IMG/VR virus record: IMGVR_UViG_3300023179_000026
Span: 64,001 to 128,000 of that record
Direction: 5' to 3' (one strand)
Origin: a virus
DNA length: 64,000 nt
Shown here: positions 8,454 through 58,451 of the stretch, piece by piece
Layout: every line of letters starts with the position of its first letter
Position numbering within the stretch: the stretch's first letter is position 1
Made by a program: the position numbers and the translations under genes
The notes under the pieces: generated by a model
Told to the model about the DNA's origin: nothing
The model's input: the letters and a program-made list of their open reading frames with translations, nothing else
Database searches by the model: none

Positions 8454-8977
8454 CTATGCAAACAACTCTTTCAATCTTGGCATGACTGAATTTAAATTAG
8501 TATATAACAATCCAATACCACCTGCTTGGTTAAATGCATCAATTTTTTTAGGTGTGTCATCAATAAGGACAGCAGGTTGATGACCATAGTTAGCATATTT
8601 CCATTTGTTAGGTTCAAAAATGGCTTTTTAGCTACTTCCCATCCTAAATTACTAGCTAACCAATCACGTTTACCTATTTCACTTGCTTTACGACTGTTTT
8701 TAGGATCTACGCCATCGCTGCGTAGCGGTGCACTTAATATGCGCCAATCAATTCGTTTATTGTCCAACCATTCTATCAATCGCATACCATCAACCATAGG
8801 TGGTAAAGAAGCAAAAAAATCTTTAACAGCATTAGGTCCCAACTTTCGTAGGTTATTTACCCTGCTTTCTGTATCAGCACCATCATAATTTAAGATAGCC
8901 TTATTAAAATCAGCTAACACACCATCCATATCAACAAAAACAAATGGTTTGGCTTTCGACACTTCAAAAATTTTCAT
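8454..8977 (-). pseudogene. HAD-family 5'(3')-deoxyribonucleotidase, frameshifted at A5 run 8625-8629
   Basis: Motif I VFVDMDGVLADF in frame 0. The expected C-terminus (AIFEPNKWKYA...VLIDDTPKKIDAFNQAGGIG, TAG at 8454) lies in the -1 frame. Confidence 0.75.
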
Positions 8978-9402
8978 ACTCTACAATTCCCTATAACCTT
9001 AGTAATGGTTGTAAATTCACGTGCAATACGCTCATAAAACATTTCAGGTGGGCGTTCACTATAAGTACGATAACCCAAAGCAAGTTGACCCATGTCAACA
9101 TAATAGGATAAACTAGGCCAACGTTTTCTGTTGAGTTTTAACCCATCAATAAGTATACATTCTTCTGCTAGTCTTGTCAATGTAGCTTTTTTTGTTTCAC
9201 CCTCAGTGTTCATTGCTTCCATCAATTTTATGGCAATAGGTTCGTTATTCAGGTGTGGATTTTCCATATGTCTTGCAAACATGTGTACAGTAAATGCTTC
9301 AATTTCAGGGTCTAAATTGACACATGCAGCAGCTTCGGCGGCAATAATTACCTCGTAGCTATGCTTGACATAGGTCATCCAATGTTGCATATTAGTGTTC
9401 AA
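8974..9402 (-). CDS. hypothetical protein
   Basis: ORF track, overlapped with both neighbours. Confidence 0.6.
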   Translation of the reverse strand: MNTNMQHWMTYVKHSYEVIIAAEAAACVNLDPEIEAFTVHMFARHMENPHLNNEPIAIKLMEAMNTEGETKKATLTRLAEECILIDGLKLNRKRWPSLSYYVDMGQLALGYRTYSERPPEMFYERIAREFTTITKVIGNCRV

Positions 9403-10636
9403 GTAATAGAGTTATAATTACATCATTACGGTTAGCACTATCGTCTCCATCGCCTGGGACTACGACAACGTTCCAATATGGTTCGCCATTTGATTTTACA
9501 CCATCTTTAAATGTCATCATTTGGTCATAGGTAATAATCGTATTTGGTTTAATACCATATTTTTGGGCAGCACGTTGTTTAAATGTTTCCCACGCTTCAG
9601 CATTTTTCCAACGCAATTTATTATTTGCATCACGTCCCATCAAATCAGTAAACATTTCACGGTCTACAATTTCACTACGTTTGACTTCTTGACCTGTTTG
9701 TTTTTTATAGATATCAACTTTTTTGTATTCACCTGATTTAGCACCCATAGAAAAATTAATTCTAAAGTTTTGTGGACGCTGACTTGTTGCTACATCGCCC
9801 ATTTTAGTATAGGCGTAAAATTGTACGTCAGGAAACTTTCTAGCTACATCATACGCCAAGTTTAAATATTCAGGGCTAAAGAAATCACCCGCATCATGCC
9901 AACGAATAATAACTTGTGTACCCTTTTTCTGATATTTTTCCCTAGCTGATTCAATTTCACTTTCAAGCATTGCTTTCCATCCATCAGGATCATTTAATAG
10001 AAAGTTTAATGACCTAGATCCTGCTTCAGATGGTGGGGCATATTGCACATAACCACCCTTCATAGCATAACATACTTGGACGCATTTACCTGCGCCTGGG
10101 CAGGTGTTGACTACTACAAATTTTTGTCTATCTTCATCAACTGCTAAACCAACTAATGCAGGTAATCCAATGTTAAAAAATATACTACTGCTTCCATCAC
10201 TATGTTGCATTTTTTCATTTTGTTTAAGCAACTTTTTAGGACGTTGCATAACAGATGCCATTAGTTTTGGTAAATCATATAATTGATTATTTCCATCAAC
10301 AATAGGTACTGTTCCACTATGAATATATGGGCGTATTAACTTATCTTGTTTAAATCGTTTGTAAATGTCATATTCCTCACCTGACATTTTTCCAAGCTGT
10401 TTTTTACTTGGTCTACGATACTTTTTTTGTAATTCAGGACTAAGTTTTCTACGAAGATAATCAGTTAACTCATCTTCAGGATAATCACGGCGTGGCGCAC
10501 CCAAAAATTTTTCAGCTTCATCTAATTCTTGTTCATCTTGAACAAACTGTTGCAACGACATAATTTGTACTCCTGAGGCTGCGCCTGGGAAATCAGACTT
10601 TAATGCATTTTCAAATAATAGTTCGCTAATTTTCAT
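9392..10636 (-). CDS. Gp88-like protein (Cys-triad, radical-SAM-like) with N-terminal leader
   Basis: TCPGAGKCVQVCYAMKG, IRWHDAGDF and FYAYTK motifs; leader MKISELLFE...ELDE. Confidence 0.7.
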   Translation of the reverse strand: MKISELLFENALKSDFPGAASGVQIMSLQQFVQDEQELDEAEKFLGAPRRDYPEDELTDYLRRKLSPELQKKYRRPSKKQLGKMSGEEYDIYKRFKQDKLIRPYIHSGTVPIVDGNNQLYDLPKLMASVMQRPKKLLKQNEKMQHSDGSSSIFFNIGLPALVGLAVDEDRQKFVVVNTCPGAGKCVQVCYAMKGGYVQYAPPSEAGSRSLNFLLNDPDGWKAMLESEIESAREKYQKKGTQVIIRWHDAGDFFSPEYLNLAYDVARKFPDVQFYAYTKMGDVATSQRPQNFRINFSMGAKSGEYKKVDIYKKQTGQEVKRSEIVDREMFTDLMGRDANNKLRWKNAEAWETFKQRAAQKYGIKPNTIITYDQMMTFKDGVKSNGEPYWNVVVVPGDGDDSANRNDVIITLLLEH

Positions 10637-10655
10637 AGTAAAAATACCTTTACAG

Positions 10656-10661
10656 TATTTA
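10656..10661 (-). promoter_or_regulatory. late promoter motif TAAATA
   Basis: About 20 nt upstream of start 10636; motif recurs before many structural genes. Confidence 0.6.
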
Positions 10662-10668
10662 TTATAAA

Positions 10669-11370
10669 TTAACCAAATCCAAACATACCATAATGTTTGG
10701 ACATAGCATATGGAGCAATGAATACTTTACCCCCAATTTTTCTCCATTCAGTACAAAAATGATAATCTTCAGATAACAAATTTACATCAATACTTGTTTG
10801 AAAAAATGCATATATAGTTCTTCCTGTATATTCATTCCAATTTCCAATATAGGTAGGCGTATGTGAGGCAAGTTTTTGAAAAACTTTTCGTTTAATTAAC
10901 ATATAACCTGTACCTGCATGAAGTACTTCTTTAAGCTTATTAGATTCAATGTCAATTTTTGGACTTTCATGATCTACGGGATTAAAGATATACCATGTAC
11001 TACAAAGAGATAATTTGTCAGTTGGGCAACCATTTTTAACTGCATTTTCTACCCATTCCCAATTAATCATTTTAGACGGGTAAATTCCACATATTAAGTC
11101 AACATTCTCTTGTAACATACGAATAACATCAGGTGGATTAATAATTATATCAGCGTCAAGGAATAATAAATGAGTACAATCGGATACCATAAAATCATTG
11201 ACAAAATTATCTCTTGCACGTGTAATTAACGATTGGTCATACATAAAATGGTATTCAAAATGCCATTTTTTCTTTCTAAATTCTTCAACTAATTTTATAA
11301 CGGAGTCAGCGAATAACCCGTGACATTGACCACCATACATCGGTGTGGCTAGAAAAACTCTTGGTTTCAT
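10669..11370 (-). CDS. GT-A-like glycosyltransferase-family protein (paralog 1)
   Basis: LATPMYGG, SLITRARD, HLLFLDAD (DxD), GTGYMLIKR, LSEDYHFC. Confidence 0.65.
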   Translation of the reverse strand: MKPRVFLATPMYGGQCHGLFADSVIKLVEEFRKKKWHFEYHFMYDQSLITRARDNFVNDFMVSDCTHLLFLDADIIINPPDVIRMLQENVDLICGIYPSKMINWEWVENAVKNGCPTDKLSLCSTWYIFNPVDHESPKIDIESNKLKEVLHAGTGYMLIKRKVFQKLASHTPTYIGNWNEYTGRTIYAFFQTSIDVNLLSEDYHFCTEWRKIGGKVFIAPYAMSKHYGMFGFG

Positions 11371-11426
11371 TATTACTCCACGTAAGTATGCTTATTTACG
11401 TGATTCAAAATTATAATTAAATTTTG

Positions 11427-13730
11427 TTAGGATGAGCCAAAAAACTTATTCATCAAAGCTTTTTGTTTTTTAGGTTTTGCTCCAAGTACAGGACTAATAT
11501 TAGCTACCTTGTCAGTGCCACTTAAATATTTTGGGTTACGTTTGTCCTCTTTAGTATAACGTGGGTCTTTAGGATCATACTCAGTACCAAACGCACTCTT
11601 AACTTGTGACGAATTGAATATGATATAAGACATATCTATATAGTCAGCTTGTTTTTGCAAATACTGATGCGCTTCTTGCTCAGCTTCTTCAGGTGTATCA
11701 CCTTCACCAATAGGTAAAGTAGGCATAACATTATCAGGTAAATATGCTACGTACTTTGATCCTTCTTTTTTAATCGTAAAATTAATGCGCTCATCAGGTC
11801 GCAATGTTCGCTTACCTTCATTAGTATTACGATATTGTATACCATCATATCCCGCATCAAACAATGAACGTGCTAATTCAGCATAGATTGTTGCTTTACA
11901 ATCATCCCAATCCATGTCACGATCTCTACGAATTGCATCAAGTTCGTTATATTCTTTTTGGTTAATAATCTTTTTCTTAAATAAAAAATTCATAACTTGA
12001 CGTAAATGTTCTTCATCAGGACCAAATATGTCAGGCATCGTAAATGGGTTAGTAATCTTTAAATAAACAGGAATTACACGTGCTCCACTATATTTGGCAA
12101 ACTCATTAGCTGCTTCACGATTGCCAAAATGTATACCAAAATCACGATATAAATTTTTAAACGTTGAAAAATCATTAGATGTACCATGATATACAATCAT
12201 AGGAGCACCATTGGTATCAACTACTTTACTATTGCCAAACCACGCTCTTAAATTTTCCTCACGACCTTCTTCTAGTTCTTTTAGAAAACTCATTGACTCT
12301 TTGTTAATATTAGGATTAGTTGGGTTAAATTCACCTGTATTAAATACTGATTTAATTTGTGTATTATCAAATGCAACAATCTCTCTAATATCACCTATCT
12401 TAGCCCTACCCTGAAATATTATGCCATCATATCCTTCACTTTGTAATTGTTTCTTATATTGTATTGCTTTACTCATAGGCCATTTGTTCTCAATTTCATC
12501 AATCAATGATAACGGTTCAACTTTTGGCTTTTGTATGGACAAATATACAGGCATGATAACAGCATCGTCTTTGTCAAAACCACGTCCTGCATAACGTTCA
12601 GCATAAGATGGGTCATCCGTAAAAAAATGCCCTAGATGTTTTTGTGCCGTGTTAAATTTGGGATAGTTTTTTAATTTTCTGCCTTTCTGAAACACACTGA
12701 AGTCTCTATCAGTACCATGATAAACTCGTAATGGCTTACCACTTGCATCTACAATTTTACTATTTTTAAACCAATTTTTAAAATTTTCTTCAGATTTTAT
12801 ATCAATATTTGTTGCACTTTTAAGTTTAAGTTTAGGTTTTTTCTCTGCAGGTCTAGGTGTGTCAAAATCCACATCAATAACGTCAACTTTTTCTTCTTTA
12901 GTAATATCAGGTTCATCCCTACCAAATGTACCAACATTATATATAGACTTGATTTGATATTGTTCAAATGGGCGATAAGTTAAAATAATGGGTGTACCCT
13001 CAGCACCAAGTTCTAACTCTTTTCCATCACGTGGTTCATATTTCTGTGCACCTGCTTCAAAAACATCTTTTAAAATGACCCCATCATATCCCATACCTTG
13101 TAGGTAACTTACAATATCTTCACTATCTGCAATAGTATATGTATCTATAACCGTATTGTCTAGTGCATCCTCAATCGAACTAATATCGTCTGCTTCACCC
13201 CATGTGTCAATTTGATCGGAAAGGTCACGAAATCCTTTTATTCTAAAACCATCATCATCATAAGCATTAATTTCAAATCTTGCGCCTGTTTTGTATATGA
13301 TTTCATCTAAATCATATATCATATAGGACACATCTCTCCAACCTAGTTTTTTACGTCCACCATCAGGTACATTTAGATCGCTAGGCACCGTATTAATAAA
13401 ATCTATTAATGATATTGTTTCGTTATAACGGGTAAGGTCTAATGGTTTAACAATACGTAAATATGCTGCGATTACAGTAGAACCACTACCATATTGTCTT
13501 GTATCTAAATGTCTAGCATATACACTAGCTGCTGCAGGGTCATTCGTAAATGATGGTACTGCACGACCTTGTGTTAATTTAAATTCTGTGGCAGTAGGTC
13601 GCTTACGTGTACCACGATATACAACAAGTGGGTTGCCATTACTATCAACCACTTTACTATTACCAAACCAACTACGAAATGCTTTTGTCTCTCTAGCCTT
13701 TTGGTACTCTAATAACTGCCCAATTTTCAT
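11427..13730 (-). CDS. protein with three tandem ADP-ribosyltransferase-like (ART-PolyVal-type) domains
   Basis: Three repeats of WF(G/K)NSK(V/I)VD..G.P..VY(R/H)GT ... V.(A/P).YL.I.. ... GYDG(V/I).. ... Q(I/V)KS. Confidence 0.82.
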   Translation of the reverse strand: MKIGQLLEYQKARETKAFRSWFGNSKVVDSNGNPLVVYRGTRKRPTATEFKLTQGRAVPSFTNDPAAASVYARHLDTRQYGSGSTVIAAYLRIVKPLDLTRYNETISLIDFINTVPSDLNVPDGGRKKLGWRDVSYMIYDLDEIIYKTGARFEINAYDDDGFRIKGFRDLSDQIDTWGEADDISSIEDALDNTVIDTYTIADSEDIVSYLQGMGYDGVILKDVFEAGAQKYEPRDGKELELGAEGTPIILTYRPFEQYQIKSIYNVGTFGRDEPDITKEEKVDVIDVDFDTPRPAEKKPKLKLKSATNIDIKSEENFKNWFKNSKIVDASGKPLRVYHGTDRDFSVFQKGRKLKNYPKFNTAQKHLGHFFTDDPSYAERYAGRGFDKDDAVIMPVYLSIQKPKVEPLSLIDEIENKWPMSKAIQYKKQLQSEGYDGIIFQGRAKIGDIREIVAFDNTQIKSVFNTGEFNPTNPNINKESMSFLKELEEGREENLRAWFGNSKVVDTNGAPMIVYHGTSNDFSTFKNLYRDFGIHFGNREAANEFAKYSGARVIPVYLKITNPFTMPDIFGPDEEHLRQVMNFLFKKKIINQKEYNELDAIRRDRDMDWDDCKATIYAELARSLFDAGYDGIQYRNTNEGKRTLRPDERINFTIKKEGSKYVAYLPDNVMPTLPIGEGDTPEEAEQEAHQYLQKQADYIDMSYIIFNSSQVKSAFGTEYDPKDPRYTKEDKRNPKYLSGTDKVANISPVLGAKPKKQKALMNKFFGSS

Positions 13731-14167
13731 CCACGGTCTTTTTTCAATATGCTACGTAGCATCCATGAATGTTTTGCGTGACTATCAATACGTCCTGCTA
13801 TAAAATCAGCAATACCTTGCTCATCTTCTGCTTCACATTGATGGAATGTTTCTTTTAATAATACAATAATTTTTTGATTATCTTCGTACAATTCTGCCAT
13901 CATTAACTCAGCACGTGGGATTTGTTGTTGCTCATCAATAATACTTAACTCTTGATACCTTGTCATTGAGCCAGGCGCATATGAGTCTAACTGACGAATT
14001 ATTTCAGCTAATTGATCAATACTACCATATACTTCATTATATAAGTCACCTAAAAATGCGTGATACTGTGGAAAGTTTGGTCCTTCTACGTTCCAATGAA
14101 ACCCTGCTGCCTTAATATAAAAAGCAAATGATGTTCCTAACACTTGCTTTAACTTATCTTTTAACAT
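13727..14167 (-). CDS. dps: Dps / ferritin-like DNA protection protein
   Basis: FHWNVEGPNF.QYH.FL.DLY...IDQLAE and ...KHSWML ferroxidase-family motifs. Confidence 0.92.
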   Translation of the reverse strand: MLKDKLKQVLGTSFAFYIKAAGFHWNVEGPNFPQYHAFLGDLYNEVYGSIDQLAEIIRQLDSYAPGSMTRYQELSIIDEQQQIPRAELMMAELYEDNQKIIVLLKETFHQCEAEDEQGIADFIAGRIDSHAKHSWMLRSILKKDRG

Positions 14168-16217
14168 TATTTTTACCTTCTAGCATATTTTTTTGTGCTT
14201 CATGACCTTCCATATACTCTGCTACATCTTTAATAAGTTCATCAGCACGTGTGATATGGTCTGAGACCCAACCTGGCAAGCCTTGTCCTTCACTTCTACC
14301 TTTAATTATCTTAGCAAGTGACATTGCATTTTTAATGGTAGATAATAAACTATTTACTGCCATTGATACTTCATGGTCAGGTTCCATGCGCTTAGCTTTA
14401 ACTACATCACCACGCATACGCATCTTACCAGGCATTACTATGAGGTCTTGTTCATTTAATCCTTCTTCATCAGAATATTGTGCATCACGTAATGCATCTT
14501 CAAAAATTTCATCTAATCCATAAATTGCACTTTCTAATTCATGCTTAGCTTCATAAACACGGCTATTATGATAATTAAAATCATCCATGTCTAAGTTATA
14601 AGTTTTTATTAGTTCTTCAATTTCTACCATAATTTCATTTACGGTATTATCGTATGCAATTCCTTTAGTAATTTTTCTAGCTTGCATTAAGGCACGTTCT
14701 AAATCATCTGCACGACCTTCGTTAATACTTTCGTTCTTAGATTTGTTACCCCAATTTTTTGCACCTGCTTTACGACATTTAACTAAAGCACCACTAGCAT
14801 ATGCACTAGGCCAAATTTTATAACGACTTTTTACCTTATGGTAGCATGCATCTTTTTTACCTTCAGTAAATAATGCTTCACTGACCATTTCACCATTACA
14901 TTGTGGGCAAATACCTTCTTTGACATAATATTCAAGACTTTCATTCTTAGTCTTGTTGCTTACCATATCAGCTTTACCTTGACGTTGCGGGTTTGGATCT
15001 TCACGGCGTTTTTTACGTACTGCTGCTGCAATAGCTTTTTTACCACCACTAGCACGTAATGATGCTGCCTTTTCTTTACTTAAGCATTTTGGTTTACCTT
15101 CACCTGCTTTACGTTCGCCACACTTACCAATACGCTCACCTTTAGTATTGTAACGATCCCATCCACCGCCACCTGCGCCACCTTCACCACCTTTGCCAAA
15201 CCATGCACGTAAATCTTCGCTTAATTGTTCAGCAATTTCACCTTCACTAAATTCTTTGCCAACAAGTTTATTACCTGTAACACCTTGAATAAGTGCCCAT
15301 GCACGTTGGAATTCTTTTTCTTTAATTAATTGGTTTAGTATTTCTTTTTGACGTGGATCTGCCATTTTAAAGAATTTAACCATTTCCATTGCACCGATAT
15401 TACCTTCATAACCTAGTTCCATCAATGCTTCTTCATTAGTATGAGATTGGTATTCATCATAATCCATATACATATCGGTATCACGATCATAATACTTACC
15501 TTCTTTAGGATCGTAATAAACAATCTTACCTGATTTTAAACGAAATGGTCCTTCTAACCCTTGGTCTGACATATCTGTATAACGTTCTTTATCAATTGGA
15601 GTTGATATTTTCCAACTTTCCTCTACATTTTGCTCTTTGTTGAAAAATGATACTTTTGGCAAACGGTTAAGTGCCCTAGAGAACCCGACAACAGATTGGT
15701 TGCGTTTTTCTGCAGGGCGTTTAGTTGGGTTCATGTCGTGCTTTTGTGCGTCTGCGGCAACTGCTTTGGCGTAACGTAAAACAGTAGCAGGTGACAGTTC
15801 ATTTATTTGGTTATCGCCTTCCCCCACACCTTCTTTCCTAATACCAAGTGTACCCGCAGGATTACCTCCACCAAACATACTAGCAAATGCATCGCTTGCT
15901 TGTTGTTTAGTATCTGCTTTTTGTTGTTTTTTTACTTCTTTCTTACTCGTAACCTTTTTAAGCATTGTTTTAAACTTATCATCATCTGTTGTTGGAGTAG
16001 TAGCTTCTGCCACAGTCTTTTTCTTTTTGCTACCTGCCCAATTACCCCACTCTGAAACACCACGCTCTACACTATTCATGTATTTTTTACCACTATCTGC
16101 AGTCTCATCCGTTTTTTCACGTTTGACTGTTTCTTTGAATAATGGTGTGGCAACAGTAGCAACTGAACCTGCTGTCATTTCATTAATTTTATCTAAGGTT
16201 TTACGAATATCTGACAT
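14154..16217 (-). CDS. modular 687-aa polyprotein, putative internal head/cargo protein
   Basis: Short unrelated modules separated by (I/L/V/F)-x-E sites; late TAAATA motif at 16240-16245. Confidence 0.65.
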   Translation of the reverse strand: MSDIRKTLDKINEMTAGSVATVATPLFKETVKREKTDETADSGKKYMNSVERGVSEWGNWAGSKKKKTVAEATTPTTDDDKFKTMLKKVTSKKEVKKQQKADTKQQASDAFASMFGGGNPAGTLGIRKEGVGEGDNQINELSPATVLRYAKAVAADAQKHDMNPTKRPAEKRNQSVVGFSRALNRLPKVSFFNKEQNVEESWKISTPIDKERYTDMSDQGLEGPFRLKSGKIVYYDPKEGKYYDRDTDMYMDYDEYQSHTNEEALMELGYEGNIGAMEMVKFFKMADPRQKEILNQLIKEKEFQRAWALIQGVTGNKLVGKEFSEGEIAEQLSEDLRAWFGKGGEGGAGGGGWDRYNTKGERIGKCGERKAGEGKPKCLSKEKAASLRASGGKKAIAAAVRKKRREDPNPQRQGKADMVSNKTKNESLEYYVKEGICPQCNGEMVSEALFTEGKKDACYHKVKSRYKIWPSAYASGALVKCRKAGAKNWGNKSKNESINEGRADDLERALMQARKITKGIAYDNTVNEIMVEIEELIKTYNLDMDDFNYHNSRVYEAKHELESAIYGLDEIFEDALRDAQYSDEEGLNEQDLIVMPGKMRMRGDVVKAKRMEPDHEVSMAVNSLLSTIKNAMSLAKIIKGRSEGQGLPGWVSDHITRADELIKDVAEYMEGHEAQKNMLEGKNNVKR

Positions 16218-16261
16218 GATGGAATTCCATAATATCTAGTATTTATTCGCTATGAATTAAT

Positions 16262-17671
16262 TTAGAACTTACCTGATGGCTTTGCTATAGGTGGTATACC
16301 ACTACGTTTAATCTTACCTAAACCTAATTTTATAGCATTTTGTCTAATACTATCAGGTTTTATATCAACGGTTAATGCTGTTTTAAAACGTGGGTCATCT
16401 TTTTCTGTTTCACTAGGGATATATCCTGAAGCCTCATTAACATTAAATGTAGGATCCACTTTTTGACGTTTCATTCCTTTAGGTTGGTTAGGATCAATCG
16501 GGTCAATATCAGTAGTGGTTAAACCTGTTGCCTCTAAATCTTTTATATACTTGTGCTCCGTATCTTCATCACCAAATGACAATATGGTGCTAGGTGGTCC
16601 TTTTCCAAAATCATGCTTACCTAAACCTTTCATATTACTAATATGTTGTCCTAACTTATACCAATCATATACATCACTTACATCTACCCTAACCGTACCT
16701 TTTGGCATTGTGGGTTTAAACTCAGGACCAGGTGGCACTCCATTAGGGTCATAATCATCACGTAATTTACTATAATGTTTTCTATTTTTAGCCAAGTTTT
16801 TATATGCCATTTCAGTAGCTAAACTACGCACACTAGTATTTGCCATTTCAAACTTAATACCACGCTTTAGTTCACTAATGATATCATTTCTACTACAACC
16901 ATGCATCTTTGCTAATTCACTAATGCTATATATAGGTTGTTCAACATTTTTACCAACCTTTTGCTCCATACTCATTTTTTCACTATGTATTTCATTATAA
17001 GTATCACGCAAACGATGCAATAAACCACTTGTACGGAATGCTTTAAATGCTATATTTTCAGGTGAAAACTCACCTTGCAAATCCAACCCTGCTTTTCTAT
17101 ATTTTCTAATTGTATCTAGTAAGTCTTGAATTTTGTCCATATCTCTAGCTTGTAATGCTAGTTCAGCTACTTGTGCTAATTTTTCAAACTTTAACTTACT
17201 TGCAGGTTCATTAATATCAGCAACTCGTTTAGTTGGAAATTTTATCCAACGATCTTTTAATACGCTGTATTCACCACGACTGACAACAGGGTCAGCAGTA
17301 TCTTGTACGTAAAGTTCTACTTCATACCCACCAATAGTAATATCATGCTGCATGTTCCACAATATTTTCTTAGCATGAAAAAGTTCAGAATAAATCTCAA
17401 TGTTTTTTAACTTATCTATATCAACAAGTATATGTAAATCTATATCGCTATGTGATGTATAGGTATATGAAGCATTACTACCACTTAGTGTAATATCTTT
17501 TACATCTATATTATTCACACCGAGATGTTCCATAAAATCATCTGCAATTTCTAATAATCGGTCACGCACAGCAGGAATCATGTGTTCATCCCTAAAAATA
17601 GCAGGATTTAATTCATCATGAAATTGCACTGCATTTGTTAATTTGAAATTTTCAAGTTCTTTTAAGTTCAT
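16262..17671 (-). CDS. Pol-beta-superfamily nucleotidyltransferase fused to a DUF5661-like module and further C-terminal modules
   Basis: ITLSGSNASYTYTSHSDIDLHILVD (GS...DxD) and third acid in EVELYVQD; ELKRGIKFEM...HYSKL module; start refined to ATG 17671. Confidence 0.75.
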   Translation of the reverse strand: MNLKELENFKLTNAVQFHDELNPAIFRDEHMIPAVRDRLLEIADDFMEHLGVNNIDVKDITLSGSNASYTYTSHSDIDLHILVDIDKLKNIEIYSELFHAKKILWNMQHDITIGGYEVELYVQDTADPVVSRGEYSVLKDRWIKFPTKRVADINEPASKLKFEKLAQVAELALQARDMDKIQDLLDTIRKYRKAGLDLQGEFSPENIAFKAFRTSGLLHRLRDTYNEIHSEKMSMEQKVGKNVEQPIYSISELAKMHGCSRNDIISELKRGIKFEMANTSVRSLATEMAYKNLAKNRKHYSKLRDDYDPNGVPPGPEFKPTMPKGTVRVDVSDVYDWYKLGQHISNMKGLGKHDFGKGPPSTILSFGDEDTEHKYIKDLEATGLTTTDIDPIDPNQPKGMKRQKVDPTFNVNEASGYIPSETEKDDPRFKTALTVDIKPDSIRQNAIKLGLGKIKRSGIPPIAKPSGKF

Positions 17672-17684
17672 AGATATATTTAGC

Positions 17685-17718
17685 AAAAAAACCGTGAGGA
17701 ATTTCTTCCATCACGGTT
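17685..17718 (-). terminator. intrinsic terminator
   Basis: AACCGTGA...TCACGGTT stem followed by a T-run on minus strand, downstream of gene 17739-18728. Confidence 0.75.
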
Positions 17719-19481: not shown

Positions 19482-20165
19482 TTATGCTGCTACAGGAGGT
19501 TTTTGTATTGCATATTCCTTTTTAATATGTTGGTAAAAGTGCATGTAATAAATTGACTGATATGCTTCATTATCATAATCAAAAAACAAATTACCATCAT
19601 TCCATCTTCCTGCTTTACCTCTAGTATCCCAATGTAAGAAAAAATTTAGATTTGCTGATGGGAAAAAAAGATTTTGGTGTTTGAGAAAAAAGTCACGTAA
19701 TTCAATTATCTCATCCGAACTGTATACCTTACTTTTAAAATACACCCTAAATTGATGTTTTGGGTTTTTATGATATATAACTTCTTTTGGTCTAGAGTAT
19801 GTATGTAATACTTCTTGAACCGTTGTAGGTTGATTTAAAATCTTAGCAAGTTCTTCTACAATATCATATCTTGTTGAATATACAGTAATAGAATTACGAT
19901 GTGTTAAGATTTTAAAGTTTCCAATATTTTCACCTTTCCACACAAGAACTTTTCTAAGTTCTATTAAATTATTAGCATATTTGATACGGATATTAGAACG
20001 TTCTAATTCACGATCAACATGACTGATATCGTACCATCGATGTAATCCAACTTGTTCTAAATTAAATTCAACCTTATATTTGTACTTGTCATACCAAAGC
20101 CAATTTTGCTTAGTATTTTGAACAAGCGTTGTATAACTAAACCCTGATAATACCATCTGTTCCAA
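19482..20165 (-). CDS. hypothetical protein
   Basis: ORF track. Confidence 0.6.
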   Translation of the reverse strand: MEQMVLSGFSYTTLVQNTKQNWLWYDKYKYKVEFNLEQVGLHRWYDISHVDRELERSNIRIKYANNLIELRKVLVWKGENIGNFKILTHRNSITVYSTRYDIVEELAKILNQPTTVQEVLHTYSRPKEVIYHKNPKHQFRVYFKSKVYSSDEIIELRDFFLKHQNLFFPSANLNFFLHWDTRGKAGRWNDGNLFFDYDNEAYQSIYYMHFYQHIKKEYAIQKPPVAA

Positions 20166-22413
20166 TTATGTCATACTTTTCTATTCTATTTTCTACATTA
20201 AACTCAATTTCTGAACCATTATAATGTACCTGAATGATTGCATCTTTTACACGTTCAAACAGTATCTTCTTACTAATTGGTACTCTAATTAATTCATCAA
20301 TTTTTCTAGCTAATGGTCTAGCACCCATCTTGTCATCATAACCAACCTTAGCAATATGTTCAACTGCTTGCTCACTCAAATTCAGTGTAATCTTATGCTG
20401 ATTAAACAATTGTGTTTTAAGCTCATTAACAAACTTGATAACAATTTTCTTAATTGCTAGTGTGTCTAGTTTCTTAAATTTGCAAATTAAGTCAATACGA
20501 TTACGTAACTCAGGCTTGAAGAATTCTTTCATTGCTTTATCATCTTCACCTGTTTTTACATTTGACCCAAAACCAATGTTATTACGCTCACTATCACGTG
20601 CTCCTAAATTACTTGTCATGATAATAATTGTATTTTTAGCATCAACTGTTTTACCATTAGTGCTAGATATTCTTCCTTCATCTAACAATTGTAAAAATAA
20701 GTTATAAACATCAGGGTGTGCTTTTTCAACCTCATCAAACAGTAAGATAGAATATGGGTTTTTACTTAAATCATTGATAATCTTTCCACCACCTAAATTA
20801 CCTTCACCATACCCAACATACCCAGGAGGTGCCCCAATCAACGCAGCTACACTGTGCTTTTCTTGATATTCACTCATATCATAACGTAATAGTGGCATGT
20901 TAAGATGTTCGCTTAATAGTCTTGCTGTTTCTGTTTTACCACTTCCTGTTGGTCCTAAAAACAAGAAGCTTGCCATAGGTTTCTTTTCATTAGAAATACC
21001 TGCAAAACTAACGTAAATACGTTCTAAAATTTGTTCAATTGTATTGTCTTGTCCATACAATTTTTCTTTAATATTTGCATCTAGGTTAATCATTCGTTCT
21101 GAAGAATCATTGGTTAGTTTATCAGCAGATACATTACACATTCTAGTAACTTGTTCTTTAATATTATCTTCACCAATAATAGCACCAACGTTGTTTAATG
21201 TACGTTGTTTAGCACAAGCAGCATCAAGTAAATCAATAGATTTATCAGGATTTTTACGATCATGAATATACCTTGCACTCATGGTTACTGACTCTTTAAT
21301 AGCTTTGTCAGTAATAACTACTTGGTGAAACTTTTGTAAACGATCACTCAAGCCTGTTAAAATCTTGATAGTTGTTTCCGTAGTAGGTTCATCAATGCTA
21401 ACACGATAAAAACGGCGCATCAGAGCACGATCTTTTTCAAATGATTCGTAATATTCTTCCCATGTTGTACTAGCAATTACTTTTAAGTTACCTTTAGTAA
21501 TAGCAGGTTTAAGCATGTTAGCAAAATCAACCGTAGTACCACTGCTATTACCACTACCTCGCATGGTATGTGCTTCATCAATAAACAGTATAGCCTTTGG
21601 TTTGCTAGCAAGTGCTTCCAATACTTGTTTAACTTTTTCTTCAAAATCACCACGATATTTACTACCTGCTAATAGTGAACCAATTTCAAGTGAATATACT
21701 TGATGATCATATAAAAATAATGGTACTTGCTTGTCTAATATTTTTTGTGCTAATCCTTCAGCTAGGATAGTTTTTCCAACACCTGGGTCGCCAACAAGTA
21801 GTACATTAGACTTGAATCGTTTAGCTAATACATTAACAATGTCATCAACTTCTTTCTCTCGTCCAATAAGTGGTTCAAGCTTGTTACGTTCAGCAAGGTC
21901 ACTAAGATTAGTTGTATATTCTTCTAATACTTCATTAGCTTGTTGTTCAGTCATTTTTCCGTTTTTACCACCACGATGCGCTTTATTCCAATAAGCAAGG
22001 AATTCTGCCCTGCTTACACCCCATTTTAATAAGAAATAGTGAGCATGACTATTGGTTTCTTGTAAAATTGACACGTAAATATCAATCAATTCAATTTGTC
22101 TGCGTCCTTGAAATAATACTTGTGTTACTGCTCGATTAAAAACACGGTCTAAACTATGTGTTTTTTTAGGTGAAATAGGTGAACCATCTTCATTAGGTTC
22201 AACTTTAATGTTTGTCATAGAATCTAAGTAAGTATCAACTTCTTGAATAAGGTTTTCAGTATCCACACCGAATTCATCTAAGTGAGTACGAAATGAATCG
22301 TAAGTAATTAAACTAAGTAAAGCATGCTCTAAGGTAACATAAGCATGATTTTTACTTTTGGCTATTTCAATAGCATGTTCGATTAATTTTTCGATTTCAG
22401 GGTTATTCTGCAT
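20137..22413 (-). CDS. clpA: ClpA-like Hsp100 AAA+ ATPase
   Basis: Clp N-domain, two Walker A motifs (GDPGVGKT, GPTGSGKT), FIDEAH, LFDEVEKAH, IGF loop (NNIGFG); no ClpB-type middle domain; start refined to 22413. Confidence 0.92.
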   Translation of the reverse strand: MQNNPEIEKLIEHAIEIAKSKNHAYVTLEHALLSLITYDSFRTHLDEFGVDTENLIQEVDTYLDSMTNIKVEPNEDGSPISPKKTHSLDRVFNRAVTQVLFQGRRQIELIDIYVSILQETNSHAHYFLLKWGVSRAEFLAYWNKAHRGGKNGKMTEQQANEVLEEYTTNLSDLAERNKLEPLIGREKEVDDIVNVLAKRFKSNVLLVGDPGVGKTILAEGLAQKILDKQVPLFLYDHQVYSLEIGSLLAGSKYRGDFEEKVKQVLEALASKPKAILFIDEAHTMRGSGNSSGTTVDFANMLKPAITKGNLKVIASTTWEEYYESFEKDRALMRRFYRVSIDEPTTETTIKILTGLSDRLQKFHQVVITDKAIKESVTMSARYIHDRKNPDKSIDLLDAACAKQRTLNNVGAIIGEDNIKEQVTRMCNVSADKLTNDSSERMINLDANIKEKLYGQDNTIEQILERIYVSFAGISNEKKPMASFLFLGPTGSGKTETARLLSEHLNMPLLRYDMSEYQEKHSVAALIGAPPGYVGYGEGNLGGGKIINDLSKNPYSILLFDEVEKAHPDVYNLFLQLLDEGRISSTNGKTVDAKNTIIIMTSNLGARDSERNNIGFGSNVKTGEDDKAMKEFFKPELRNRIDLICKFKKLDTLAIKKIVIKFVNELKTQLFNQHKITLNLSEQAVEHIAKVGYDDKMGARPLARKIDELIRVPISKKILFERVKDAIIQVHYNGSEIEFNVENRIEKYDIIGTDGIIRV

Positions 22414-22846
22414 TATTATTTTCCTTTTTTCTATCATGCATTGTCATACCATCTAAATGGTCTACTTCATGTTGAACTACTCTTGCTTCAAGATTCATAA
22501 ATTCTTCCGTTAAAAAATTACCATATGCGTCTTGGTACGATAGCACAACCTTTTCAGGTCTGTCAAGTTCAACCGATTCATTAGGATAACTTAAACATCC
22601 CTCCAAATATGGCACCTTATTTTCACTATATGACATAATGGTTGGATTAAAAAATACCTTTGGGTTATGGTCAACATCCATTACAAACATACGGTAGCGT
22701 AAACCTACTTGATTAGCAGCAAGTCCAACACCTCCACTAACATGCATAAACTGTAGCATTTCTTTAGCTAGTTGTTCATTTTGTAGTGGATATTTAAAAT
22801 CTATTGGTTTTGTTTTTAAATGTAGTACACGTTTAGTTAACTTCAT
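22403..22846 (-). CDS. def: peptide deformylase
   Basis: [17 protein letters not shown] and QHEVDHLDG motifs. Confidence 0.96.
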
Positions 22847-23634
22847 GTCGTATTTAATTTTTGTTCCTGTTCTAAAACTCTGATTAAATTGTCACTTATT
22901 TGTTCAGGTAAAACAGGTCGAAGTATAACATATTGATCCCCTGTGCCAACATTATTAGATAGACCATGCCCATTCAATCTTAATGTAGTATTTGGTTTAG
23001 TACGTGGTTGCACATTAATTTCCAATTCTTTACCGTAAATGGTAGGTATAATCATAGTTCTACCTATCACCAAATCAAATATACTAATATCTTGATGGTA
23101 GTATAAATCTAACATTCTACGTTCAAACAATGGGTGTCTATGTTGTCTAAAATTAACTTGGAGCGGTCCATCAGGCAGTAAGTTGTCATATCGCACTACT
23201 CCACCATCATCTATGCCTTTAGGAATTACAATTTCATATAATTTAGAACCTTGTGGTGTATTCAAATGTATTGGATGTTTATCACCATGAGCAATTTGCT
23301 CTAAGGTAACAAATACGGTGGCAGTATATATTCGCTGTTGTGGGGCACTTTGTTGTCTAAAAAATTGTCCAAAAATATCAGGAAACCCTGACCCAAAATG
23401 AAAATCAAAACCATTTTGTTGTGGATTAAAACCATTAAATTGTGGTGGTGGGTTATCATATTGAGCACGTTTTTGCGGGTCACTTAATGTATCATAAGCA
23501 GCTTGAATGGTTTGAAAACGTGCAGTATCACCACCACGATCAGGATGGTGTTGACTAGCTAATTTACGATATGCTTTTTTAATTTCATCAGGTGTGGCAT
23601 TTTTTGCCACACCCAATGTTTGATAATGGTCCAT
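22843..23634 (-). CDS. dnaJ: DnaJ/CbpA-like co-chaperone (J domain plus C-terminal domain, no Zn finger)
   Basis: HYQTLGV...[17 protein letters not shown] (HPD motif), G/F-rich linker, C-terminal GDQYV. Confidence 0.9.
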
Positions 23635-32880: not shown

Positions 32881-33111
32881 TTAGGATATGTCGATTTTGG
32901 GAGAAGAATTACCACGCTTTGCCCACATTTCATTTTGTTGTTTAGCGTATTCTGCCTTGTATGATTCTAGCACCATTTGCATTTGACGAACCATATCATG
33001 CTTGCCCATCTTAAAAGCCCATTGCATACGTGTGTTTAATGTGGCAATTTTTTCACCTAACTGCTCCATATTTTCACCACTTAAATCACTTACGAATGGA
33101 TGATTAAACAT
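32881..33111 (-). CDS. hypothetical coiled-coil protein
   Basis: Start refined to ATG 33111 (TAATG coupling). Confidence 0.55.
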   Translation of the reverse strand: MFNHPFVSDLSGENMEQLGEKIATLNTRMQWAFKMGKHDMVRQMQMVLESYKAEYAKQQNEMWAKRGNSSPKIDIS

Positions 33112-33863
33112 TACCAAGCTGTTAAAGTTATACGCTTCCAAATAGCAGTTGCACCATCATAATTTGCTGTACAAACATAAAAATATGTGGCATCTGATGC
33201 TACAGTACCCGCTTTATCACCTAAAACACCAACATTACTAACAGGTACACTTGTAACTACTTGTGTAGCTTTACGTGGTCTGTCAATTGGTGTTACTGTA
33301 ATATTCGTACCGCAATCCACGGTGGAAAACTCATGATGCACTTTGGTAACATTTGCTGCCATTGTAAAATTACCACCTGCAACACCATTACCTGCATAAT
33401 TTTCTAAAGTAAGCATACCATCTGTTACACTAGATGGCATTGTAATTACTGCATTTGCATTAGCTACAGTAAATATCGTCTGTATGTTTTGCTGAGTTCC
33501 CGCAGGTGCCCATGCTGCAAAAGCTAACGTAACATTACCTGTTATAGTACCATATTGTACATCACCATTGGTAACATTGATGGTGACTGTTCCACTTAAA
33601 TTGTTACCTAAGTTATAAGTAGTTGCCCTGAAACCTTGTGTCAATGCATTGCTTATTAATGTGTTAGCCATGTCATTGTTTAAGGTTGTACCTGTTAATG
33701 CACTTTTAACAACAACTTTATTTTGTAAATCAGTGATTTCAGTTGATGCAGTATCTAAACCACTTTTAATAGCAGTAAAATTAGTTCTAAATCCTTGTGA
33801 ACTATTGTTTATCCCAGGAATAGGATACGTTGTATCAATCTGACTTGTATCAATTGCGCTCAT
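33111..33863 (-). CDS. virion structural protein (baseplate/fibre-associated)
   Basis: T/N/A-rich; N-terminal ID..YP..G..N.SQGFR.NF..IK motif; late promoter 5 nt upstream. Confidence 0.6.
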   Translation of the reverse strand: MSAIDTSQIDTTYPIPGINNSSQGFRTNFTAIKSGLDTASTEITDLQNKVVVKSALTGTTLNNDMANTLISNALTQGFRATTYNLGNNLSGTVTINVTNGDVQYGTITGNVTLAFAAWAPAGTQQNIQTIFTVANANAVITMPSSVTDGMLTLENYAGNGVAGGNFTMAANVTKVHHEFSTVDCGTNITVTPIDRPRKATQVVTSVPVSNVGVLGDKAGTVASDATYFYVCTANYDGATAIWKRITLTAW

Positions 33864-43405: not shown

Positions 43406-43451
43406 TTGTATAGAATTCCATTAATATTTGTATTTATCAGAACATAAGTAT

Positions 43452-43483
43452 AAAAAAATCCCAACAGGGTTAGTGTTGGGATT
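43452..43483 (-). terminator. intrinsic terminator
   Basis: AATCCCAACA/TGTTGGGATT 10-bp stem, 7-nt loop, T-run on minus strand. Confidence 0.8.
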
Positions 43484-43509
43484 ATAAGTTGCAGTCTTAT
43501 TGAAGCTGC

Positions 43510-46500: not shown

Positions 46501-46890
46501 ATCATTGGGATCCTTAAAATCTATTACTTTCATGCCAATAGCAGCATTACCCGCAGGACGTGATGTTGCTGATGGTTGTGCTGCTGCACCAATTGAAGGC
46601 ACTGCTACTTGACTTTGATCAAGTGCAACTTCATCAAGTTGTTTTTTAGTAGCTTCAATTTGTTCCATATATTCTTTAAGCTTATGTGATACACTTGTTT
46701 TACCAACTTCTTTAGCAGGTTTTTTACCAATCATATCTTGAATATCTGCACCACCACTTGTGTCTAACTCTTTAGATGGTTTATCATCTTTGTCATCATC
46801 TTTTTGTGCAGTACCACCATAGGCTTTACCCGCAACTTTGCGATTTTCTTCCAACTGTTCAAGTTGTGCAATAATTGTTTTTAAATCCAT
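43510..46890 (-). CDS. very large acidic modular polyprotein, putative prohead core/internal protein
   Basis: About 25 hydrophobic-x-E(E/S/G/A/D) junctions, duplicated modules; start refined to MDLKTII at 46890. Confidence 0.7.
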   Translation of the reverse strand: MDLKTIIAQLEQLEENRKVAGKAYGGTAQKDDDKDDKPSKELDTSGGADIQDMIGKKPAKEVGKTSVSHKLKEYMEQIEATKKQLDEVALDQSQVAVPSIGAAAQPSATSRPAGNAAIGMKVIDFKDPNDPLKAALDKAVKNKEVTALGEENLEEVAPPGMEDWIKGRKEAFKKQYGNRWEGVLYATAWDEYNKKHKKDESMYESADADKQPIMEGKLQEILEAYPHEHKMCQEGWAMDEGFYEALCDHYYKEGRIPRKIWHGPLEELRKYVEECYMEDTGYVSEEKKEYDLPPSMRQPATLDTVGASRTVDLVPQQQANRELNKQLELEPSMRKTPFETTQRPMTYESDSKERSYICVNAKKGKHECKASSSYEAAKKAAAYWGMKNTAGIDAHLADVEHKAVNESDDMGPITKKEKTVTVTHKTSGKELVIKDTPENRKKYKEMGYEVKSLKEDHMYKPLKKIGNVEIHQGFIDGHPADYVVKVDGEVVAKGMYHFPSNSFWFKIPGVKGDKAFNELDDVVSYFNKGDRLDEKWAGDAKIEKTGEYADKTIDELESMLSKLKKSGPHKEGSPEYKKQNQIEFAIRSKHKGKKFGKVEESWQSQLDSLLNEGLTVTTSTGGPMGAEDSVSVSASGEDAKSMMELLRNAGIGHGGASEIHSDEPEVTGQDEVLGQLGGHEHDDSGDTDLSFLKKMIGTPVEAASCDEGQTQTASPGDARMSPMANKMDEAEVEEGNRFTYNLLKAREQGKEEADLDGDGDMEKVQKESDDMGAKPDTGGRCMMVHKTSGKEIVVRDEPDVIKKYEAMGYKKQVEEADDEDHKDHSEKSSTGGRIERKDGVTKHHAGKHYGGSEDKDDDDEDIKEDSYDADDPTDVAGEKDERSEAMRDAGLAASYVPEEALDQPATFEEKSCMECGSPMEESAHECNECGYMEAMHEDEVEESALQAYLGKKKYGEEGMKALQQAGRDGASKEEMAKIRAQHDKLDEEGYTFEGLFKKLAMIAEESTAEKDEHAEKAGKKVTKDIEYDEGHKGKDDAKAEKAGKKVTKDIEYDDKKDKKKVDEWANSPQNKLSDEEFQTEMNYMLQALSGGLNGPKVDNTTLPKTQVRPVVESESLDGWLKLAGIK
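43730..43851 (-). repeat. in-frame direct repeat, 75-bp period (AEKAGKKVTKDIEYD x2)
   Basis: Near-identical DNA copies starting at 43730 and 43805. Confidence 0.85.
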
Positions 46891-46900
46891 AATACTTTCC

Positions 46901-47518
46901 TTATTTTCTCGCACCTGTTTCGGGTCTTGGTGGTCTTGTAATTGTAGTCATTGGACTCTTGTTACCCATAGTTGACATAAACTTTTTCTGATCAAACGGG
47001 TCAAAAGCAGGTTTAGTTTTATCACCTGCATATGGCATCTCTATTTTGTCTTTTTGTTCAGCAGCACGAATACGTGACATATATTGTTCTCCATACTCCT
47101 TACTAGCTTCTTTACCATCATCTTCTAATTCAGTATGATCTAATACAGGACTATGCTCCATTTGATTAGCATATTGCTCAGCTTCATGTGTTACACTGTC
47201 ATCGTATCCTGCTTGTATCATACGAACCATGTTTTCATCATAATTTAACAAACGTGCAACTTGCTTGACCATTGGCTCAGTGCATGGATATCTAAATTCA
47301 ACATCAATAATCCATACTGATTGATTCTTTAATTGTGGAAATCCATAGGGATCTTTTTGTATAGGTGTACTTTTTGGTTCGCTCATTTTTACAGGATCAA
47401 ATTTCTGCAAATTGTACATAAAAAGGTCTAACCAATTTCTGTCACAATCCCCTGCAACTTTGATCTTGTAATTATAAGTGCGTACACTTTCAGCTAAATA
47501 TTGACGAAAAGTTTTCAT
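46901..47518 (-). CDS. late protein with T4 capsid-targeting-sequence-like N-terminus
   Basis: MKTFRQYLAE-S versus T4 IPII/IPIII MKTYQEFIAE; TAAATA at 47539-47544. Confidence 0.65.
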   Translation of the reverse strand: MKTFRQYLAESVRTYNYKIKVAGDCDRNWLDLFMYNLQKFDPVKMSEPKSTPIQKDPYGFPQLKNQSVWIIDVEFRYPCTEPMVKQVARLLNYDENMVRMIQAGYDDSVTHEAEQYANQMEHSPVLDHTELEDDGKEASKEYGEQYMSRIRAAEQKDKIEMPYAGDKTKPAFDPFDQKKFMSTMGNKSPMTTITRPPRPETGARK

Positions 47519-47546
47519 AAACTATATTCCTGTTAAATTATTTATC

Positions 47547-48062
47547 TTAATTACTTTTTTTATCTTGTTGATTTTTCTCTATCAACGTTTTCAGTAATTC
47601 ATTACGATCTAATATTCTACCCTCACCTAGATCTTCTTTTTTGCTTTCTTCTTTTGCAGTTGTAACGCTTAGTTTACGATCAAGTTCAGCTTTTTTAAGT
47701 TGTAAATCAATCATTTTTAGTTTTTTATTAAGCTTAGCAGTCTTTGCTGTGATAGCATGCCCTAACATAGAACTAGCAACAGCAAAAATTTCAGCACTAA
47801 ATCTACTGTCAACTTGCATACCTAAGTTGCTTAAATCATGAAAACTTTCTACTGCTAATTTTGATATTTCATCTAGTTCACCATCACTTGATTCTAATCC
47901 ACGTACTTGAGGCAATGCTGCTTCTACCTTTTCAATGGTGTTTAACGTATCTTCAGAAATTAATTCAGTAGGCACAATTTTAGTATGTTTAATATCAGGT
48001 TCAGACTCAGATGGTTTTTCCTCTAAATCTAATTCAAATAAATCAATAAGGCTTTTAGTAAT
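47547..48062 (-). CDS. hypothetical late protein (coiled coil), probable ATT start
   Basis: GGAG-N7-ATT at 48062, in frame with track ORF 47547-47975; in-frame TAG at 48078-48080 with no ATG between; TAAATA at 48085-48090. Confidence 0.6.
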   Translation of the reverse strand: MTKSLIDLFELDLEEKPSESEPDIKHTKIVPTELISEDTLNTIEKVEAALPQVRGLESSDGELDEISKLAVESFHDLSNLGMQVDSRFSAEIFAVASSMLGHAITAKTAKLNKKLKMIDLQLKKAELDRKLSVTTAKEESKKEDLGEGRILDRNELLKTLIEKNQQDKKSN

Positions 48063-48097
48063 TTTAATTCTCCAAATCTAAAAATATTTAGTTATAA

Positions 48098-57821: not shown

Positions 57822-58451
57822 TTACGATTTTTGTATGTTCCAAGTTGCAATTTTAGATGGTACGATAACTCCTCTTGGTGCACTAAATTTACCTATATCT
57901 AATGTATCTTGCCACCATACACCATCATAGCCTAATTCTTCTGCATAAAGTGGTAATACATAATCAATCACTGAAGTTGGGGTCATTCTTGGATTTTTAG
58001 TCAATGTTTTTAGTTTATCAGTTGGTTTATACGACCCTGCTATTTTCTTAATATCGCTTTCATCATCAGCTTCAATTTTAGCTTGCTCATATGAATCATA
58101 ATCTGAATAAACTTCAGAATCTAGCTCATCATCATAATAACTAACACGGTATACAATACTTGGTTCTAACAAACCACTTTTAACTGCCCATTGTTGTATT
58201 TCACTTTTAGCAGTCTTATTTAAATTATTAGCACTTAAAAATTTGTTACCACTTTTTTGTAGTACATAGGTATCCCCTGTTACAAATCCTTTTGCAATTC
58301 TTCTCCATGCATCAGGATGTGTACTTACACTTAGCCCTGCACCTTCGTAACTGCCTTCACGCTTTTTAGATGCATCTAAGTTACCAACGTGATATAATTG
58401 CTTAAAACTTTTTGTTGGTATTTTAGATTCAAATAAGTCACTAATTCGCAC
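57822..58451 (-). CDS. single-domain ADP-ribosyltransferase-like protein with leader MRISDLFE
   Basis: LYHVG, GLSVS, LGYDGVWW motifs echo the ART repeats at 11427-13730. Confidence 0.55.
   Translation of the reverse strand: MRISDLFESKIPTKSFKQLYHVGNLDASKKREGSYEGAGLSVSTHPDAWRRIAKGFVTGDTYVLQKSGNKFLSANNLNKTAKSEIQQWAVKSGLLEPSIVYRVSYYDDELDSEVYSDYDSYEQAKIEADDESDIKKIAGSYKPTDKLKTLTKNPRMTPTSVIDYVLPLYAEELGYDGVWWQDTLDIGKFSAPRGVIVPSKIATWNIQKS

Follow-up and report, generated by a model that had tools for sequence, protein, structure and literature searches.

We analysed a gene block at positions 8454-17686 of a 64,000-nucleotide window of viral DNA (bases 64001-128000 of a 136,878 bp IMG/VR virus record whose completeness is 39% by CheckV). 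A first-pass annotation, made from the letters alone, had taken this block for an island of effector proteins that are packaged in the phage head and matured there by the prohead protease. We observed that at least three products of the block, a triple ADP-ribosyltransferase (ART), a GP88-family protein and a modular protein of 687 residues, carry what appear to be N-terminal tags of the T4 capsid-targeting type. A nucleotidase-like product may carry one as well, and a nucleotidyltransferase (NTase)-like product less probably so.

The window has a G+C content of about 34%, and its minus strand holds nearly all of the genes, including every gene of the block. It also encodes a tail sheath, a tail tube, a head-tail adaptor, large fibre-like proteins, a ClpA-like ATPase and DnaJ-like proteins. 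The family B DNA polymerase of the record was closest to that of the Sinorhizobium phage Phosso (49% identity, 469 kb), followed by the Agrobacterium phage Atu_ph07 (46%, 490 kb) and then by Rak2-like phages. The source phage is a jumbo T4-related myovirus, and the block is probably a late-transcribed and variable part of its genome.

Genes of the block

The triple ART gene (11427..13730, on the minus strand, as are all features of the window given below) encodes a protein of 767 aa with the leader MKIGQLLE, three ART-PolyVal domains and a basic tail (leader classes are defined below; this one is class A). It matched PF18760 in three stretches (3.9e-58; 196.6 bits against a gathering cut-off of 31.2), and the domains span residues ~15-272, 313-468 and 490-718. 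The active-site His motif VYHGT is present in domains 2 and 3, while domain 1 has VYRGT in all three phages compared; the Asp of the GYDG motif is retained in all three domains. Since this is one domain type repeated three times, the protein lacks the disparate activities that mark a polyvalent protein.

The GP88-family gene (9392..10636; PF17338, 6e-37, 128.1 bits against a gathering cut-off of 24.4) starts with the class A leader MKISELLFE, after which come ~40 aa of disordered spacer and a conserved body in which three Cys are invariant. In its AlphaFold model (mean pLDDT 77.8), residues 1-40 form a short helix and a low-pLDDT spacer. Foldseek found nothing for this model at E <= 0.001. With VIA-align the best Z was 6.9, with no clear relative; radical-SAM enzymes gave the longest alignments (Z 5-6.5). 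The invariant positions of the family are C179, C185 and C189 (C-x5-C-x3-C), together with the motif RWHDAGDFFS.

The 687-aa modular protein (14154..16217) carries the class B leader MSDIRKTLDKINE and had only uncharacterised PHROG matches. The NTase-like protein (16262..17671; 469 aa from its ATG) starts with MNLKELE and has a variable C-terminal cassette. It matched phrog_36119 (1.2e-46), and its scores against Pfam NTP_transf_2 (19.7 bits) and Polbeta (19.6 bits) were both below the cut-offs (21 and 26.9). Sequence searches of the PDB with the GP88, NTase-like and 687-aa proteins gave nothing significant.

The 5'-3' deoxyribonucleotidase-like gene (8457..8977; phrog_2643, 5e-13; open reading frame (ORF) as read 8492-8977) starts with MKIFEVSKAKP, a short tag that we term class C. 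The gene is frameshifted near 8627-8640, at an A run after ...GWEVAKK. The last 56 residues are encoded in a different frame (down to ~8457) and are 89% identical to the orthologue in the IMG/VR contig L006. Possible causes are an error of assembly, decay to a pseudogene and a programmed shift.

Three genes of the block have no leader. These encode a 142-aa protein (orf142, 8974..9402; no Pfam or PHROG match, conserved in the IMG/VR contigs L006-L008), a glycosyltransferase (GT)-like protein (10669..11370; phrog_1574) and a Dps/ferritin-like DNA-binding protein (13727..14167; PF00210, 1.8e-23; phrog_3636). A second GT-like gene just outside the block is also leaderless. The Dps-like gene sits between two tagged genes and overlaps both, so that the 687-aa, Dps-like and triple ART genes form one operon. 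For the untagged products (the two GT-like proteins, the Dps-like protein and orf142), an ordinary late role in the cytoplasm is probable.

The gene order of the block is kept in contigs L006-L008 (76-82% identity at the ART gene). Megablast of the block against phage records gave zero matches. The block proteins had zero homologues in Atu_ph07 and Phosso even at E = 10, except for a weak nucleotidase match (a 205-aa protein encoded outside the block, described below, does match). The flanks of the block (the DNA polymerase side and the ClpA side) are syntenic with both these phages, and since both lack the block genes, the block occupies a variable slot. The enzyme assignments made at first pass (three ARTs, a Gp88-like enzyme, an NTase and a nucleotidase) hold by Pfam and PHROG, with the NTase only 'NTase-like' and the nucleotidase gene frameshifted. 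The block itself is not a dedicated cargo island; it is a mixed late-gene region in which tagged and untagged genes are interleaved, and the idea that dozens of peptides are also cargo found no support.

Late-type promoter motifs

The motif TAAATA, read on the coding strand, was found within -50..-11 of 44 of the 195 called genes, against ~3% expected (p ~1e-24). Tail tube, head-tail adaptor and fibre genes have it upstream, as do the GP88, 687-aa, NTase-like and both GT-like genes and the gene of the 205-aa protein. The tagged genes or their operons thus have the motif in common with the structural genes, 11-31 nt upstream. In the block, it lies at 10656..10661 (25 nt upstream of the GP88 start), at 11393-11398 (GT-like gene), at 16240..16245 (28 nt upstream of the 687-aa gene) and at 17677-17682 (NTase-like gene). 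The copy at 16240..16245 would drive the operon of the 687-aa, Dps-like and triple ART genes. The motif in the window matches TATAAATA, the core of the T4 late promoter. The suggestion that these are late TAAATA-driven genes is borne out at the level of sequence, and by this measure the block would be expressed late, alongside the structural genes.

We also noted that in 17 genes of the record TAAATA begins 10-14 nt before the ATG, and that a second group has a spacing of 20-31 nt. Examples of the short spacing are the motif at 17677-17682 and those upstream of 22843-23634 and 33111-33863. Such close spacing hints at late mRNAs that are leaderless or have a very short leader.

Leader classes at true N-termini

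The first-pass annotation had grouped several proteins by similar short leaders. We evaluated this using internal Met positions as the control. A loose leader, defined as [LIVFM]-x-E within the first ~16 residues, was not enriched (41 of 195 proteins against 155 of 668 internal Met). The similarity held at true N-termini in narrower classes.

Class A (^M[KR].{2,3}[QDE][LI].{1,2}E, with the consensus MK(I/L)x(D/E/Q)L(L/F)(x)E) was present in 5 of 195 N-termini and at 1 of 726 internal Met (p = 0.002). Its carriers include the triple ART, the GP88-family protein, a protein starting with MKLTELNE (outside the window) and a 209-aa protein with a GTG start and the leader MRISDLFE (57822..58451), which is encoded directly after the head-tail adaptor gene, outside the block, and is counted among the five. 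Class B (M(S)D(I/L)RKx(L/I)xx(I/L)(N/T)E, of the form MSDIRKxLxxINE) was matched in the record by the 687-aa protein alone, and by none of the 726 internal Met. A third, internal protein (IP)-like class is represented by MKTFRQYLAE at the start of the 205-aa protein (46901..47518), which is encoded in the tail/structural region outside the block. This start resembles the capsid targeting sequence (CTS) that T4's internal proteins carry, MKTYQEFIAE (PMC8442874). In classes A, B and IP-like, unrelated proteins carry an N-terminal tag of ~6-20 aa ending in (L/I/V)-x-Glu. The starts MNLKELE, MKKEIINE and MDLKTIIAQLEQLEE received no separate support as leaders.

As a negative control we examined the Pectobacterium phage CBB (36% G+C), in which Peptidase_S77, the T4 gp21 family, is present. 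Class A was found at 4 of 611 N-termini against 5 of 2233 internal Met, and class B was absent. The lack of enrichment in CBB indicates that the leader motif is not general to the N-termini of AT-rich jumbo phages. In G001, a phage record of 316.8 kb with terminal repeats, the leaders were present at 7 of 493 N-termini and at 6 of 1867 internal Met; the corresponding counts for Atu_ph07 were 19 of 824 and 2 of 2556.

Leaders on GP88 homologues

We found 2155 metagenomic homologues of the GP88-family protein, while cultured phages had only distant, core-only relatives (e.g. mycobacteriophage gp88). A second contig, of 143.8 kb, encodes an identical GP88 protein. The leaders were surveyed on the best 120 of the 2155 (~50% identity, nearly full length). 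Among these, 78 carry a class B leader (e.g. MDIRKILDIVTE), with the Glu at residue 12 in 68 of the 78, and at least 23 carry a class A leader (MKITDLLLVE, MRLHKLLE, MKLIDLLTE and others). Most of the remainder were truncated calls starting at a conserved VMSLxQF. One homologue, P0047, starts with MKIFEITKPKK, which is near-identical to the MKIFEVSKAKP of the nucleotidase. Since one conserved GP88 body is found with discrete alternative leaders (A or B), we argue that the leaders are functional units. Together, these sequence comparisons support the existence of specific leader classes that behave as transferable modules.

Joints at hydrophobic-x-Glu sites

It had also been proposed that the domains are joined at hydrophobic-x-Glu (h-x-E) sites. 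We read the joints of the 687-aa protein from its alignment with the 819-aa (L006) and 908-aa (L007) orthologues, in which cassettes are gained, lost and replaced. Each of the five joints (GVAEG|, GVAEG|, LDES|, (I/L)NE| and LSE|) is preceded by [LIVFM]-x-E at a distance of 0-1 residue, a condition that holds for 6-7% of positions (p ~2e-6; the window was chosen post hoc). GVAEG is also found in the spacers of the GP88 homologues P0060 and P0063. The density of h-x-E sites was ~2x the genome mean in the 687-aa protein and 1.7x in a 1126-aa Glu-rich protein (43510-46890), and was not raised in the ART, GP88 and NTase-like proteins.

In the triple ART, domain 2 (12327-12794, against L006:10865-11305) is a swapped cassette with ~40% identity, whereas domains 1 and 3 are >95% identical in L006/L007. 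Linker 2 (MSFLKELEEGREE) has two h-x-E sites (LKE and LEE) and looks like a relic leader, while linker 1 has none. The C-terminal cassette of the NTase-like protein is replaced in L007, with VNE| at its right joint. The proposal therefore stands for the 687-aa protein and for linker 2 of the triple ART, and fails for linker 1. The conserved joints could serve recombination instead of proteolysis.

Leaders in the virion proteome of Atu_ph07

The ORFs of the Atu_ph07 genome (MF403008) were called, and the same leader patterns were applied to them. Gp numbers were assigned to the tagged ORFs from the order of the genes and from molecular weights agreeing to two decimals with PMC6102473 Table S5. 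Class A in its strict form was found in 18 of 824 ORFs against 2 of 2556 internal Met, and class B in 2 ORFs. The tags include the forms MRWxQLxE (Glu = E8) and MSDLRKFINILNE (Glu = E13).

We observed that 19 of these 20 class A/B ORFs are in the published virion proteome, against a base rate of 131/714 (Fisher p = 6e-14). When paralogues were collapsed, 8 of 9 tagged families were virion-associated (p = 1e-5). The tagged virion proteins are gp53-56, gp58-63, gp206, gp381, gp408, gp482, gp487, gp548, gp561, gp594 and gp672. From its annotated start gp57 has the same leader, and it is also in the virion table; the sole tagged ORF absent from the table is 315248-315526. Enzyme domains are found within this set: Zeta_toxin in gp53 (1.5e-14) and, directly behind the tag of gp381, a weak ART-PolyVal match (3.8e-4, below cut-off). 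Homology between the 205-aa protein (MKTFRQYLAE) and Atu_ph07 gp113 (MKTLQDYLTE) begins at residue 1, and gp113 is itself in the virion proteome, with 61.7% coverage by mass spectrometry (MS).

Several tagged proteins, namely gp53 (87 kDa, band 9), gp594 (23.9 kDa, band 13) and gp482 (31.7 kDa, band 12), peak in abundance in gel bands that run far below the mass predicted for them. These low bands fit processing and could also come from degradation. In the literature that we searched, we found no paper that connects Rak2- or Atu_ph07-like phages with a capsid targeting sequence.

The head protease

A gp21-like protease had been expected in the full genome of this phage. None was found in the 137-kb fragment, in which the whole head module (portal, protease and capsid genes) is absent. 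Related genomes did contain one: PF03420 (Peptidase_S77) is present in Phosso and Atu_ph07, in G001 (the only complete phage record with a leader-bearing GP88) and in 5 of 9 further fragments with a leader-bearing GP88, lying ~10 kb from the GP88 gene in three of them. It was not found in the L006 and L007 records, which are 21% and 8% complete.

The genes flanking the protease in G001 start with MKLNDILVE, MKLNDILLE, MKLSDILTE and MKRTFIEFLTE. A 371-aa gene adjoining the protease has a module that is 50% identical to residues 200-265 of the 687-aa protein. The Phosso gene after the protease starts with MRASELFE, and the Atu_ph07 head proteins gp205, gp214 and gp215 (the capsid protein) have LLE-G near their N-termini.

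Interpretation of the leaders

In T4, the internal proteins and Alt reach the prohead by a tag of 10-20 aa, which gp21 removes after its Glu; Alt, itself an ART, is cut at ITE-6 and LTE-619 (PMC5694885). We lean, with some caution, towards a similar route here, in which T4-type tags bring the triple ART, the GP88-family protein and the 687-aa protein into the head, and an S77 protease, whose gene would lie in the part of the genome that the fragment lacks, trims them. The proteins would be made late from the TAAATA promoters, and the tag would dock them into the core of the assembling prohead, as the virion proteome of the relative suggests. The S77 protease would then remove the tag after its Glu, and it may also cut the 687-aa protein at the h-x-E cassette joints. 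Once matured, the proteins would remain in the head and pass into the cell together with the DNA, like Alt and the internal proteins of T4. On the evidence of the Atu_ph07 proteome, the tagged enzymes of this phage are probably packaged, and we infer, by analogy, that the block proteins are delivered to the host. What role they would play against host defences is a matter of speculation.

Several points weigh against this reading. The leaders of the NTase-like protein (MNLKELE) and of the nucleotidase (MKIFEVSKAKP) are short and weak. As noted above, the 137-kb fragment has no head module and linker 1 of the triple ART no h-x-E site. In Phosso, whose DNA polymerase is the nearest, class A tags number only 3, and the orthologue of the MKTFRQYLAE protein has Ser at the expected Glu. 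The Atu_ph07 preparation was purified with polyethylene glycol and also lists RecA-like, single-stranded DNA-binding, ribonucleotide reductase and terminase proteins, so that virion-associated is not proof of encapsidation. Protein abundance could also confound the association of tags with the virion in Atu_ph07, and the published MS is at the protein level. As Atu_ph07 has no homologues of the block proteins (searched to E = 10, with the one weak nucleotidase match in the combined search with Phosso), its proteome bears on the tags, not on the block proteins.

We consider it unlikely that the tags direct proteins into the virion as assembly or structural parts (core, scaffold or decoration), or as uncleaved components, and not as ejected effectors. 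The tagged genes of G001 and Phosso that lie in the head module by the protease, like T4 gp67, gp68 and gp22, would fit such a role, and so would the 687-aa protein, which has few recognisable enzyme domains and has a module in common with the protease-adjacent gene. However, the ART-PolyVal, GP88, Zeta-toxin (gp53) and nucleotidase bodies are enzymes without an obvious structural role, and Alt of T4 is a direct precedent of a tagged, ejected ART.

It is more doubtful still that the block proteins are ordinary cytoplasmic late enzymes, and that the motif serves the start of translation, acts as a regulatory peptide or marks proteins for degradation by the ClpA-like ATPase. The phage does encode this ATPase (20137-22413) and DnaJ-like proteins beside the block, the block is interleaved with untagged metabolic-type genes, and the ARTs ModA and ModB of T4 are not packaged (PMC5512222). 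But this explanation does not account for the presence of 19 of 20 tagged Atu_ph07 proteins in the virion proteome, for the cluster of tagged genes by the G001 head protease or for the non-enrichment in the equally AT-rich CBB. That the likeness of the leaders is due to chance or to the composition of AT-rich, Glu-rich N-termini (MK...) is barely credible. In its favour, the loose definition fits internal Met at least as often as N-termini. Against it, the narrow classes show a 4- to 30-fold enrichment over internal Met, are not enriched in CBB and are swapped as discrete units on GP88 bodies, and these controls already largely refute it.

Beyond this phage, we tentatively put forward a broader possibility, which we hold with less conviction than the packaging of the three block proteins. 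Uncultured aquatic and soil jumbo phages with a T4-type head protease may widely use an address-label system, in which interchangeable tags (A, B, the short MKIFE type and IP-like) load a shuffled kit of enzymes, and cassette polyproteins are diced at h-x-Glu joints (GVAEG, (I/L)NE). Different tags could set different copy numbers or head positions. If this were true, the injected proteome of uncultured giant phages might be predictable from sequence alone. If the tags work as in T4, the carried proteins here would be the triple ART, a widespread GP88-family enzyme and the modular protein; such cargo would act before phage gene expression, and these proteins would be natural candidates for host takeover or counter-defence. 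The Atu_ph07 proteome, re-read in this way, offers a cultured, testable model for the tag. The short tag is also a possible handle for loading foreign proteins into jumbo-phage heads, as has already been done with T4 heads. The principle is already known from T4, and what we describe is a variant of it, not a new principle.

Comparison with known systems

The candidate tags resemble those of the T4 CTS cargo in being short (6-13 aa), N-terminal and ending in (L/I)-x-Glu, and MKTFRQYLAE is close to the T4 sequence itself. The late TATAAATA-like motif, the presence of an ART among the candidate cargo and the gp21-family (S77) protease encoded by relatives of this phage are further likenesses. 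Unlike T4, this phage has several distinct tag classes, known here from sequence. The bodies also differ, being ART-PolyVal (of the H-Y-D clade, whereas Alt is of the R-S-E clade), GP88 and the modular 687-aa protein, and proteins built of several domains or cassettes may be cut internally as well. Another difference is position, which here is a variable slot near the DNA polymerase gene, not next to head or baseplate genes.

The phiKZ-like phages (phiKZ, 201phi2-1 and SPN3US) are likewise giant myoviruses that package many ejection or inner-body proteins, including enzymes, and their gp21-related protease cuts after Glu. However, their propeptides are mostly >100 aa with the motif (S/A/G)-x-E or A-x-E (PMC5694885), whereas here a leader measures 8-13 aa and P3 is hydrophobic, like that of T4. 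This phage also belongs to another lineage, group 2.2 of the jumbo phages, with no virion RNA polymerase seen.

ART-PolyVal was defined in 'polyvalent proteins', which are predicted to be injected and have up to 12 ART copies per protein (PMC5512222). The several ART-PolyVal copies per polypeptide, the mosaic shuffling between relatives and the predicted delivery with DNA are features in common with the triple ART. Classical polyvalent proteins, in contrast, mix disparate domains and are linked to MuF/portal modules or to zincin peptidases for processing (PMC5512222), while here the targeting would be by a T4-type tag and the processing by the head protease. The Dar system of phage P1 (DarA, DarB, Hdf and Ddr) also places anti-host enzymes in the head, some of them proteolytically processed. 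It has no similarity to the block in sequence or organisation, and incorporation in P1 is hierarchical, via Hdf and DarA, with no short N-terminal tag.

Further observations

The 1126-aa Glu-rich protein is encoded downstream of the MKTFRQYLAE gene, at the position that gp112, a virion protein with the annotation 'autotransporter', occupies in Atu_ph07. A 37-aa module of it is 62% identical to a G001 protein.

Eleven Atu_ph07 paralogues, gp54-63 and gp408 (41844-50592 and 304780-305556), are all virion proteins with an invariant tag (M1, Q5, L6 and E8). They also share an invariant YRG, RSxS and a late Glu, which recall R-S-E-type ARTs. We evaluated gp54-63 as ARTs, and rejected this beyond a motif-level lead: hhalign against ART-PolyVal gave 0.4% probability, no Pfam family matched, and the best PDB match had E = 0.48. 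Among these paralogues, gp54 consists of two copies of the unit, and gp63 has an extra N-terminal region that is weakly GNAT-like.

The annotation of the Atu_ph07 record is likely to be faulty at some starts. The gp113 ORF (84393-85148) extends 29 codons upstream to MKTLQDYLTE, and in gp407 (303755-304783) an internal MKLINLLEH looks like the true start. At 22449-22868 we found an unannotated ORF of 139 aa that starts with MRIIDLEYAE.

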